A DNA stretch of 64,000 bases from Eledone cirrhosa (GCA_964016885.1 OZ024764.1:19406001-19470000), one strand, 5' to 3'. Counted from the stretch's first letter, positions 10,626 to 13,272 are shown. Notes: generated from the letters alone by a model not told the origin. Numbers and translations: made by a program.

Positions 10626-11170
10626 GCCAGCTGCCAACAGTGACCACAACTTCATTGTCAGCAGCCCAGCTTCTCAAACATCACAGACTGGAATAAATAC
10701 TTTGCCGATAATTACTGGTAGTTTAACTTTTATTTCGTTCGTCTACAGAAGCAATGACCCTCACTTTTACTACAGCTTGTAGGATGTGGGAGGGAGACAA
10801 AAACATCACTAACTGGGGTCTCACAAATGTGACAGTTAGTTTTGAAAATACATATACAAGATACAAGACAAATGACTAGACTGAAATATATTTGATAGGG
10901 AATAAAGAGTAGAATATTCTAGTCTGTGGTGTTGGAGAAGTTTGGAGGAGATAGGTCCCTGACAACGAGGTTCTTGTTATCGTTGGCAGCTCTCCTTACT
11001 GAGGTGTCAGGTGATACATATGAGGGTGTTTGGTAGTTCCAACATCTTAGCCTTGCTATCACTCGAGGTGAGACTGTCTCAGAAAGTATACATCCATATA
11101 TTGCGAGGAGAAAAATATTAAAACTGTGAATTATGTGAGAAACTGAGGTGATTGATATCTTTTATGAGAT

Positions 11171-12025
11171 ATGTCGAAAAATATAGTAAAATCACCATTC
11201 CACTGTGATATCTGTGGTAAATCATTCTCTCGTAGTAATCAGCTAACTACTCACAAACGTATTCATACAGGAGAGAAGCCTTATAAGTGTGATATCTGTA
11301 ACAAATCATTCAGTCACAGTAGTAGCGTCAGAGTTCACAAACGTATTCATACAGGAGAGAAGCCATATCACTGTGACATCTGTGGTAAATCATTCAGTCA
11401 CAATAATACCTTAACTAAACACCATCGTATTCATACAGGAGAGAAGCCATATTACTGTGACATCTGTGGTAAAACGTTCTCTAAAAATAATAACCTAACT
11501 ACTCACAAACGTATTCATACAGGAGAGAAACCATATCACTGTGATATCTGTTGTAATTCATTCTCTCAGAGTAATCACCTAACTACTCACAAACGTATTC
11601 ATACAGGAGAGAAGCCATATTACTGTTATATCTGTGGTAAAACGTTCTCTAAAAATAATAACCTAACTACTCACAAACGTATTCATACAGGAGAGAACCC
11701 ATATCATTGTGATATCTGTGGTAAATCATTCACTTGTAGTCATCACCTAACTACTCACAAACGTATTCATACAGGAGAGAAGCCAGATCAATGTGATATC
11801 TGTGATAAATCATTCAGTGACAGTAGTAGCTTCAGAGTTCACAAACAAATTCATACAGGAGAGAAGCCACATCACTGTGACATCTGTGGTAAATCATTCA
11901 GTCACAGAAATACCTTAACTACCCACAAATGTATTCATACAGGAGAGAAACCATATCACTGTGATATCTGTGGTAAATCATTCTCTCGTAGTAATAACCT
12001 AACTACTCACAGACGTATTCATTAA
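11171..12025 (+). CDS. Tandem C2H2 zinc-finger protein, 10 fingers, no effector domain (possibly a rearranged pseudogene)
   Basis: 284 aa of CxxC-x12-HxxxH repeats with TGEKP linkers; two more in-frame fingers and a broken third follow the TAA, to ~12267. Confidence 0.8.
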
Positions 12026-12266
12026 GGAGAGAACCCATATCACTGTGATATCTGTGGTAAAACATTCACTAAAAATAATAACCTAACTACTCACAAACGT
12101 ATTCATACAGGAGAGAAGACATATCACTGTGATATCTGTGGTAAATCATTCAGTCACAGTATTAGCATCAGAGTTCACAAACAAATTCATTCAGGAGAGA
12201 AACTACATCATTGTCATCTGTAGTAAATCATTCAGTCAGGGTAATACCTTAACTACCCACAAACGT

Positions 12267-13272
12267 TAAATATATTTAAAGATGATACAAACTGTTTTGT
12301 AGATCTCTTCAAGTTTAATCATCATCATCATCATCATCTCATTTTACGTCCACTTTTCCCTGCTTGCAAGGGTGGGACGGGAACTGATTCTGGCTTGATT
12401 TCTACAGCTGGATGCCCTTCCTAACACCAACCTCATTTACAGTGAGTGCTGGGTGCTTTTTTGCCGTGGCACCTCCACGACCACTTTGCAGTGGAATGAT
12501 AGGGACCCCAATCCCTATCATCTCATTTCTACAGCTGAGTAAACTGGAGCAATGTGAAATAAAGTGCCTTGCTCAAGGAAACAACACATCACCCGGTCTG
12601 AGAATTGAACTCACAACCTTTTGATTGCAAGGCCAATGCTCTAACCACTAAGCCATGTGCCTCCATAAAAAAATATAATATACATATAAAATTATTTTGT
12701 ACATATTCCTGACAGTGAAGAATCTAATTTTTCTGGTCTTCATTTGATTAGTTATTCCTGTAATAATGGAAATATTTCTACTCCTGTAGTTCCATCAACT
12801 ATCATCTTTGTCAATATATGAAGATCTTACAAAATCATGTGTAATTGAGTTTACAAGAAATATTTCCCAGTATTTCTCGCATAGATTTATATAAACAAGG
12901 TTGTATCTGTTCTGTATAACAGCTTCCTTTAGTCTTTAAATAATGGTGTTGATGAAACAACTGATATAAAAGTGTTTTATCTTTTTCATACCAGTCTTTA
13001 TATTTATCTAAAAACTTTCCATTGTAAGTTCATGAAATTGTGCAAAGTTATGTTCCAAATAGCAGCTTAATACTGAGAAATTTAGTTATATTACTAAATC
13101 CCTTGAAAGTGTTGAGTGTTTTCAAAATTATTTGAAAATGATGGGTAGTGTCTTTCATTAGAAATGGTTAATGTTGAGGATATGTCTGATGTAACGTGCT
13201 CTTTAATGCCAATGTCCTCTGGTATTCTGAAATAATAAAAGAACATTATAAGATACTCAGAAACTTGTAATA
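12267..13272 (-). other. ZNF-gene 5'UTR exon portion and splice acceptor (paralog of ~28090-28793)
   Basis: Same-orientation match to 28090-28793; minus-strand TTCTTTTATTATTTCAG acceptor ending at 13227. Confidence 0.7.
12320..12664 (-). mobile_element. tRNA-derived SINE with RTE-type 3' tail
   Basis: Minus: A-box TGGCTTAGTGG, B-box GAGTTCAATTC, CCTTGAGCAAGGCAC core, tail matching RTE 3'UTR 17350-17503, (ATG)n end; absent from the paralogous site at ~28139. Confidence 0.8.

Follow-up and report, generated by a model that had tools for sequence, protein, structure and literature searches.

The closest described counterpart of the locus analysed here is antiNOS-2 of Lymnaea stagnalis, which according to the cited accounts is transcribed from a NOS duplicate that carries an internal DNA inversion, and is linked to NOS repression (PMC3537157, PMC7878882). 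Pseudogenes are also described as sources of antisense RNAs or endo-siRNAs that pair with the parent mRNA in trans, in rice (PMC2708354) and among human trans-NATs (PMC2984423). Coleoids are reported to carry very large tandem expansions of C2H2 zinc-finger genes (PMC9068888, PMC10547256), and their A-to-I editing is portrayed as broad, with much of it in repeats (PMC9068888). Antisense RNAs could be overlooked in octopus because one annotation is described as having filtered out antisense transcripts (PMC9699675). Snap-back synthesis-dependent end joining is said in the cited study to leave inverted repeats at junctions, with sizeable chance rates for short repeats (PMC2943611); a further related paper is PMC9115989. 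Our literature search, which covered a minority of subscription journals, found no case of a C2H2 zinc-finger gene made antisense by inversion in octopus.

The window (the whole stretch of 64,000 nucleotides from Eledone cirrhosa, free of Ns throughout) contains in its first 29 kb four related units of one zinc-finger gene family, in tandem on the minus strand and among transposon pieces. The units and the elements of their predicted gene model are as follows.

1263-3343, minus strand: unit A (intron and promoter)
7434-11089, minus strand: unit B
12271-20284, minus strand: unit C
26982-28869, minus strand: unit D (exon 2 only)
26982-28749, minus strand: exon 2 of D, with acceptor, 818-nt UTR and 315-codon ORF of 11 fingers; the reference copy and predicted trans target
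19163-19289, minus strand: predicted short noncoding exon 1 and motif block of promoter C (CACGTG, GGAAGT, TGCGCATG, TGACGTAA)
19157-19162, minus strand: splice donor GTAAGT, with further copies at 3162 and 9756
13227-13228, minus strand: splice acceptor AG, in a context identical to that of D and kept in an old paralog of about 70% identity

The units differ from one another by 2.4-3.3% substitutions over most of the segments compared, and by 5-7% in a short segment at the intron end; the promoter and intron of unit C lie 2.4-3.3% from those of A and B in most segments. The predicted gene has a short noncoding exon 1, an intron of about 2 kb and a single further exon, which comprises a long UTR rich in AT and the ORF of tandem C2H2 fingers. 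We propose this model because the GTAAGT donor is present in three of three promoter copies and the acceptor is common to C, D and the old remnant of about 70% identity. The fingers follow the pattern C-x2-C-x12-H-x3-H with TGEKP-type linkers, and match Pfam PF00096 and PF13465 with no further Pfam domain. Short protein queries gave 65 matches, 27 of them with a visible organism; 13 of these 27 were from Octopus, among them the top three by identity (71, 66 and 65%), and the Octopus matches share a finger signature with the cluster. The search with the full-length finger array was saturated, and its matches were generic (one Octopus protein in the 120 matches listed, best identity among them 60%).

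D is the only paralog in the window with a full finger array, and its finger 5 has lost one Cys zinc ligand. The finger repeats had been described as common to many paralogs; one such paralog is indeed present here, and "many" would follow from octopus genomes generally. A 39-bp satellite of at least 35 kb (28869-64000) begins about 120 bp into the intron of D, which leaves D without a promoter in the window. The satellite unit length is a multiple of 3 and produces long spurious open frames. Elsewhere in the cluster, an LTR retroelement lies between A and B (3345-7434), with LTRs that are 90.8% identical against about 97% for the flanking paralogs and with no evident target duplication; this suggests a recombinant of two insertions, which removed exon 2 of B or made the A/B duplication. 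About 700 bp of the unit B intron (8988-9689) match nothing else in the first 29 kb. Broken frames at 21600-22900 resemble the transposase of a DNA transposon, presumably hAT-like, and the one piece scanned has no Pfam match. The labels SINE, RTE clade, Gypsy and hAT for the repeats of the window are likewise our own presumptive assignments.

An earlier note on this DNA had proposed that the zinc-finger coding segment of unit C is inverted relative to its own 5' UTR exon, and had called for a comparison of 11.0-13.3 kb with 26.9-28.8 kb. Self-BLAST of these regions recovered the flip, whose parts are listed here.

11092-12266, plus strand: flipped block, running opposite to its own exon and containing the end of the 5' UTR, the ATG and 12.7 repeats of the C2H2 finger
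12271-13226, minus strand: unflipped 5' UTR part of exon 2, with 3.1% substitutions relative to D and one 61-bp deletion
28012-28090, minus strand: 79 bp of D that unit C lacks between its two blocks
11089-11092: left junction, where the upstream homology of B and C ends (11089 corresponds to 20284), followed by two unassigned bases and the start of the flipped block
12266-12279: right junction, with a 4-nt insert (12267-12270) within a perfect 14-bp palindrome, a snap-back-like scar

Positions 11092-12113 match D in reverse (28011-26987, 80.7% identity; 88.5% over 745 nt in the best register), and 12271-13272 is collinear with D in three segments: 12271-12319 with 28091-28139 (100%), 12676-12844 with 28136-28304 (94.7%) and 12839-13272 with 28360-28793 (97.2%). 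The UTR and acceptor block, placed by the note at 12267-13272, thus has the minus orientation given to it and starts instead at 12271, after the 4-nt insert. The match that was said to run from about 28010 through the ATG (at 11171) and the fingers does break off mid-finger, at 12266; to this description we add that the frame stops after finger 10 and shifts in finger 13. The rest of the coding sequence is missing, as is the 3' UTR. The two blocks of C meet within 79 bp in D coordinates, as would be expected of a single inversion breakpoint. In D these 79 bp are flanked by a 12-bp direct repeat, and most of them may be a separate loss.

The 5' part of the flipped block could not be aligned sensibly with the old paralog and differs from D at only 5 of 106 columns, which places the block in the young lineage. 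Judged from its sequence, this is most likely a young, well-defined internal inversion in an apparently decaying zinc-finger paralog. An assembly artefact, a fold-back or a mis-join in a repetitive cluster, could be imagined from the near-identical units and the bordering 35-kb satellite. Yet misassembly of the block is unlikely because the junctions lie outside shared repeats and carry short inserts, there are no Ns, and the longest exact match of the block elsewhere in the window is 100 nt; the block also has no twin and carries private mutations. We consider an artefact extremely improbable.

A history with no inversion at all would fuse convergent plus- and minus-strand paralogs by two independent deletions. 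Family sequence does occur in both orientations (an old intron piece lies on the plus strand at 24816-25240) and deletions are common here. However, two unrelated breaks would then have to land no more than 79 bp apart, and with no overlap, in a gene several kb long; the flipped block belongs to the young lineage, whereas the sole plus-oriented piece seen is about 72% identical; and no plus-strand homologue of the intron or acceptor lies upstream of 11092. It is very improbable.

The right-junction palindrome was matched by 41 of 5,000 random inserts and the left one by 1,804 of 5,000, which is not significant; palindromic additions are thus retained for the right breakpoint and rejected for the left. 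Neither inversion junction shows clear microhomology. The left junction lies about 20 bp beyond the recognisable end of an element with diverged inverted ends (19746-20264 and 10554-11069), composed of a minisatellite of 62-73 bp that is found in the introns as well. A break inside a terminal inverted repeat continuing past 20284 was not supported (207 and 250 of 2,000 shuffles).

The same junctions bear on a single template switch, in which copying would have run through promoter B and its flank to 11089, turned back into exon 2 in reverse, and resumed forward 79 bp away, so that unit C and its flipped block would have arisen at once. One such step would account both for the end of the B/C homology exactly at the left junction and for the lack of any 3' ORF remnant. 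In three of the four segments compared, B differs from C by 2.4-3.1%, and the sequence past 20284 looks ancestral from its likeness to an intron copy of the repeat (43 of 2,000 shuffles, a weak result and one of four tests). Against this, a switch predicts that B and C are sisters, and a rooted count, itself weak for its distant outgroup, gave six sites for A+B, two for B+C and none for A+C out of 17 variable sites; the lack of clear microhomology at either junction also speaks against it. We regard the switch as rather unlikely and favour an inversion with deletion in an existing array. A twin-primed (5'-inverted) retrocopy, a class defined by intron loss and a poly(A) tail, was rejected, as the intron, acceptor and promoter are retained.

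Unit C carries further lesions.

11171-12025, plus strand: 284-codon ORF with 10 fingers, ended by a premature stop; fingers 11-12 follow the stop, and finger 13 is frameshifted and cut
12320-12675, minus strand: 356-bp insertion absent from D, with a microsatellite tail and a 4-bp target duplication
13269-13272: third junction, where a D-type intron end is joined to an A-type intron at a 4-bp microhomology
13600-17620, minus strand: insertion of about 4 kb in the intron, comprising a LINE (endonuclease and reverse transcriptase) on the strand of the gene and a SINE-like piece in the opposite orientation

The premature stop occupies 12023-12025, just after finger 10, and the 356-bp insertion is presumably SINE-like. 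The third junction likely marks an intron deletion. We place it in C because D, not C, matches the old paralog there: 2 of 2,000 shuffles reached the score of D (28794-28869) against 191 of 2,000 for unit C. The LINE insertion contains three minus-strand AATAAA (16208, 15701 and 14145), and its protein search returned almost exclusively unnamed matches, at 44-57%. In the predicted pre-mRNA of unit C, SINE-like sequences form two inverted pairs, 12377-12493 with 17396-17508 (92%) and 13610-13857 with 17360-17615 (75%). These pairs would be a more ordinary source of dsRNA than the flip.

We counted synonymous changes over the 22 complete fingers (excluding the partial fingers C13 and D11), with a neutral expectation of about 21% synonymous. 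Minor alleles common to C and D fingers are synonymous in 16 of 44 cases, above the neutral value, as in an old constrained family. The corresponding counts are 1 of 16 for alleles unique to C and 4 of 21 for those unique to D. These small counts show no sign of purifying selection on C since the C/D split, nor on D, so that the test does not separate the two. Restricting it to singletons gave 0 of 12 for C and 3 of 15 for D, neither significant (p 0.08 and 1.0). All 48 zinc ligands are retained in the 12 fingers of C, and the rough neutral chance of keeping 284 codons intact is 0.03-0.19. Upstream of the ATG, an out-of-frame stretch (11122-11170; 27930-27985 in D) encodes a short motif like the N-terminus of an Octopus zinc-finger protein. 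As a decayed octopus-type MENELCE leader it agrees at only four residues, which is not significant (205 and 333 of 2,000 shuffles); C and D may nevertheless both have lost an original start by decay.

The question is then what the minus strand of unit C would produce. The proposed splice from the donor at 19162 to the acceptor at 13227 stands: the donor is the one repeated in every promoter copy, and the acceptor is that of D. Promoter C retains all four motifs of A and B, for which our transcription-factor assignments are presumptive, and its CpG observed/expected ratio is 1.12 against 0.61 in the intron (short windows). Such retention is expected at 3% divergence and is no evidence of use. 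Between 13226 and the flip there is no minus-strand AATAAA, the only hexamers being two ATTAAA in the block collinear with the UTR of D. The first AATAAA comes 360 nt past the flip.

10729-10734, minus strand: first AATAAA beyond the flipped block, and predicted 3' end of the antisense RNA

A spliced antisense transcript is thus predicted to be geometrically sound. It would be about 2.6 kb long, assuming the start site, with a longest ORF of 39 codons, and would include 1.18 kb antisense to the fingers, close to the 1.1 kb expected by the note. Of its 21-mers antisense to the fingers, 467 of 1,161 pair perfectly with the predicted mRNA of D and cover 785 of 1,181 nt; the longest exact complementarity is 100 nt, and a 400-nt duplex with D has -533 kcal/mol against about -150 for five shuffles. 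The predicted mature RNA contains no internal inverted repeat, and any duplex must therefore form in trans; for want of paired sense and antisense arms we rejected a hairpin-RNA (hp-siRNA) gene. An Rfam scan of 9000-29000 gave no match at the gathering score. The LINE in the intron, lying on the sense strand, could end transcription early and so remove the predicted antisense RNA.

These features could belong to a functional trans-antisense gene of the antiNOS type, in which RNA from promoter C would pair with many finger-repeat mRNAs and lower or edit the family. All the cis parts are in place, two-thirds of the finger antisense is covered by perfectly pairing 21-mers, and as far as the cited accounts go there is a molluscan precedent (PMC3537157) in addition to the large C2H2 families and wide A-to-I editing of coleoids (PMC9068888). 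However, the flipped block differs from D at 7 of 168 columns in the clearest finger pair and 5 of 106 in the leader, compared with 20 of 642 in the UTR. The block thus resembles D no more than the UTR does, and we see no sign of selection for pairing; on these small counts, complementarity shows no excess similarity over the flanks. The copy also has several lesions, a sense-strand LINE with three AATAAA in its intron, and a position 16 kb from the 35-kb satellite. We regard a functional antisense gene of this type as rather unlikely.

On the opposite strand, the relevant features lie between promoter B and the flipped ORF.

9751-9883, minus strand: motif block of promoter B (9821-9883) and its minus-strand donor (9756)
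10692-10906, plus strand: two AATAAA (10692 and 10901)

The ATG of the flipped ORF (11171) does lie about 1.3 kb downstream of promoter B (9821-9883), as had been claimed. In a promoter capture, the other side of promoter B would drive a 284-aa protein of 10 fingers, and RNAs transcribed from opposite strands would form a perfect cis duplex. This is compatible with the 284 open codons and the complete set of zinc ligands, with a CpG-rich promoter, and with three donor-like plus-strand sites (9968, 10106 and 11068, among seven between promoter B and the ORF) that are kept in both B and C. But the path to the ORF crosses the two AATAAA and 17 upstream ATGs, and none of the eight AG candidates after 11068 has a good pyrimidine tract. 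In addition, 15 of the 16 changes found only in C are non-synonymous. An exact look-up found neither the flipped ORF nor the ORF of D in the protein collection, a weak argument given that D is absent too. We find promoter capture very doubtful indeed. The case for the convergent transcripts suggested in the note is weak: the donor of promoter B faces the minus strand, away from the flipped ORF. Given the seven donor-like sites, plus-strand read-through may occur, but there is little support for a translatable plus-strand mRNA or for a steady convergent partner. A bacterial promoter scan gave chance-level results, its model being irrelevant to this genome.

A second arrangement in the cluster resembles the flip. 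In an old family remnant (about 28% divergent), an intron piece on the plus strand (24816-25240) stands beside an exon-2 piece on the minus strand (25370-25822) that ends in finger 1. This order fits an older event in which exon 2 was flipped and the 3' ORF lost, and other histories are possible. With two flip-like cases in 30 kb, a mutational tendency of the cluster is favoured over a unique adaptation.

Taking these results together, we hold with somewhat more confidence than doubt that unit C is a decaying pseudogene, likely shaped by a double break and end joining, which would make a spliced antisense noncoding RNA if its promoter fires and would not be a selected regulator. Within its exon 2, the stretch that begins 79 bp beyond the UTR break and ends in the middle of finger 13 is reversed, and the 3' remainder is missing. 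One break would have fallen in the UTR and another inside the finger array or beyond it; the segment would then have been re-ligated in reverse, the 3' end being lost, with snap-back synthesis at the right junction. The predicted RNA would join exon 1 from 19163 to 13226, run through the UTR and the antisense fingers, and be cleaved near 10710. If co-expressed, it could pair in trans with D-like mRNAs and be edited or diced. Selection for the antisense RNA is probably absent, as the block has drifted at the pace of the flanking sequence and unit C bears other damage. The 284 open codons, the 48 of 48 zinc ligands and the retained promoter motifs and CpGs speak against the decay reading, and conservation need not yet be visible in a regulator this young.

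We consider distinctly unlikely a bolder reading in which one inversion turned the unit into the source of a spliced, polyadenylated RNA against its own family, pairing in many registers and directing ADAR or small RNAs to the subfamily, and in which such clusters would repeatedly make antisense brakes, as the second flip-like remnant 13 kb away would suggest. If the RNA were made and acted, the locus would be a testable source of dsRNA for the editing of C2H2 mRNAs, in a lineage whose ADAR editing is very active, and a route by which a cluster limits its own dosage. If the locus is silent, it would be a clean young example of cluster decay through inversion and deletion.

Among known systems, unit C resembles the coleoid C2H2 expansions as described (PMC9068888, PMC10547256) in its tandem, TGEKP-linked fingers clustered among transposons, and differs in being a rearranged and broken copy, with its ORF opposite to its own acceptor and UTR. 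The right junction is like the snap-back scars of the cited study in that a short insert creates an inverted repeat across it, and unlike them in that only one of the two inversion junctions does so, in AT-rich sequence (PMC2943611). The rice and human RNAs, as presented, come from transcription of the opposite strand or from hairpins formed by pseudogene pairs in inverted orientation (PMC2708354, PMC2984423), whereas in unit C the gene's own promoter would read the flipped segment, with no hairpin. The route from duplication through internal inversion to a trans-antisense RNA is already known from the NOS pseudogenes of Lymnaea, and the architecture is not new. Like antiNOS-2 and antiNOS-1 in the accounts cited, unit C is a duplicated molluscan copy in which an internal inversion sets paralog sequence antisense within a transcription unit; it has the reversed segment, the signals of the original direction (in sequence) and long complementarity, and is a candidate member of the antiNOS-type trans-NAT genes. 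The antiNOS RNAs are reported as expressed and linked to NOS repression, and antiNOS-2 as keeping a sense ORF for a truncated protein (PMC3537157, PMC7878882), while the RNA of unit C is a prediction with at most 39 codons. The flipped part of unit C, unlike antiNOS as described there, is an array of 84-nt repeats, so that one RNA might base-pair with numerous genes and in various registers; should this RNA be produced and active, it would be a multi-target version of that system, with one locus pairing with a repeat common to a family of transcription factors.
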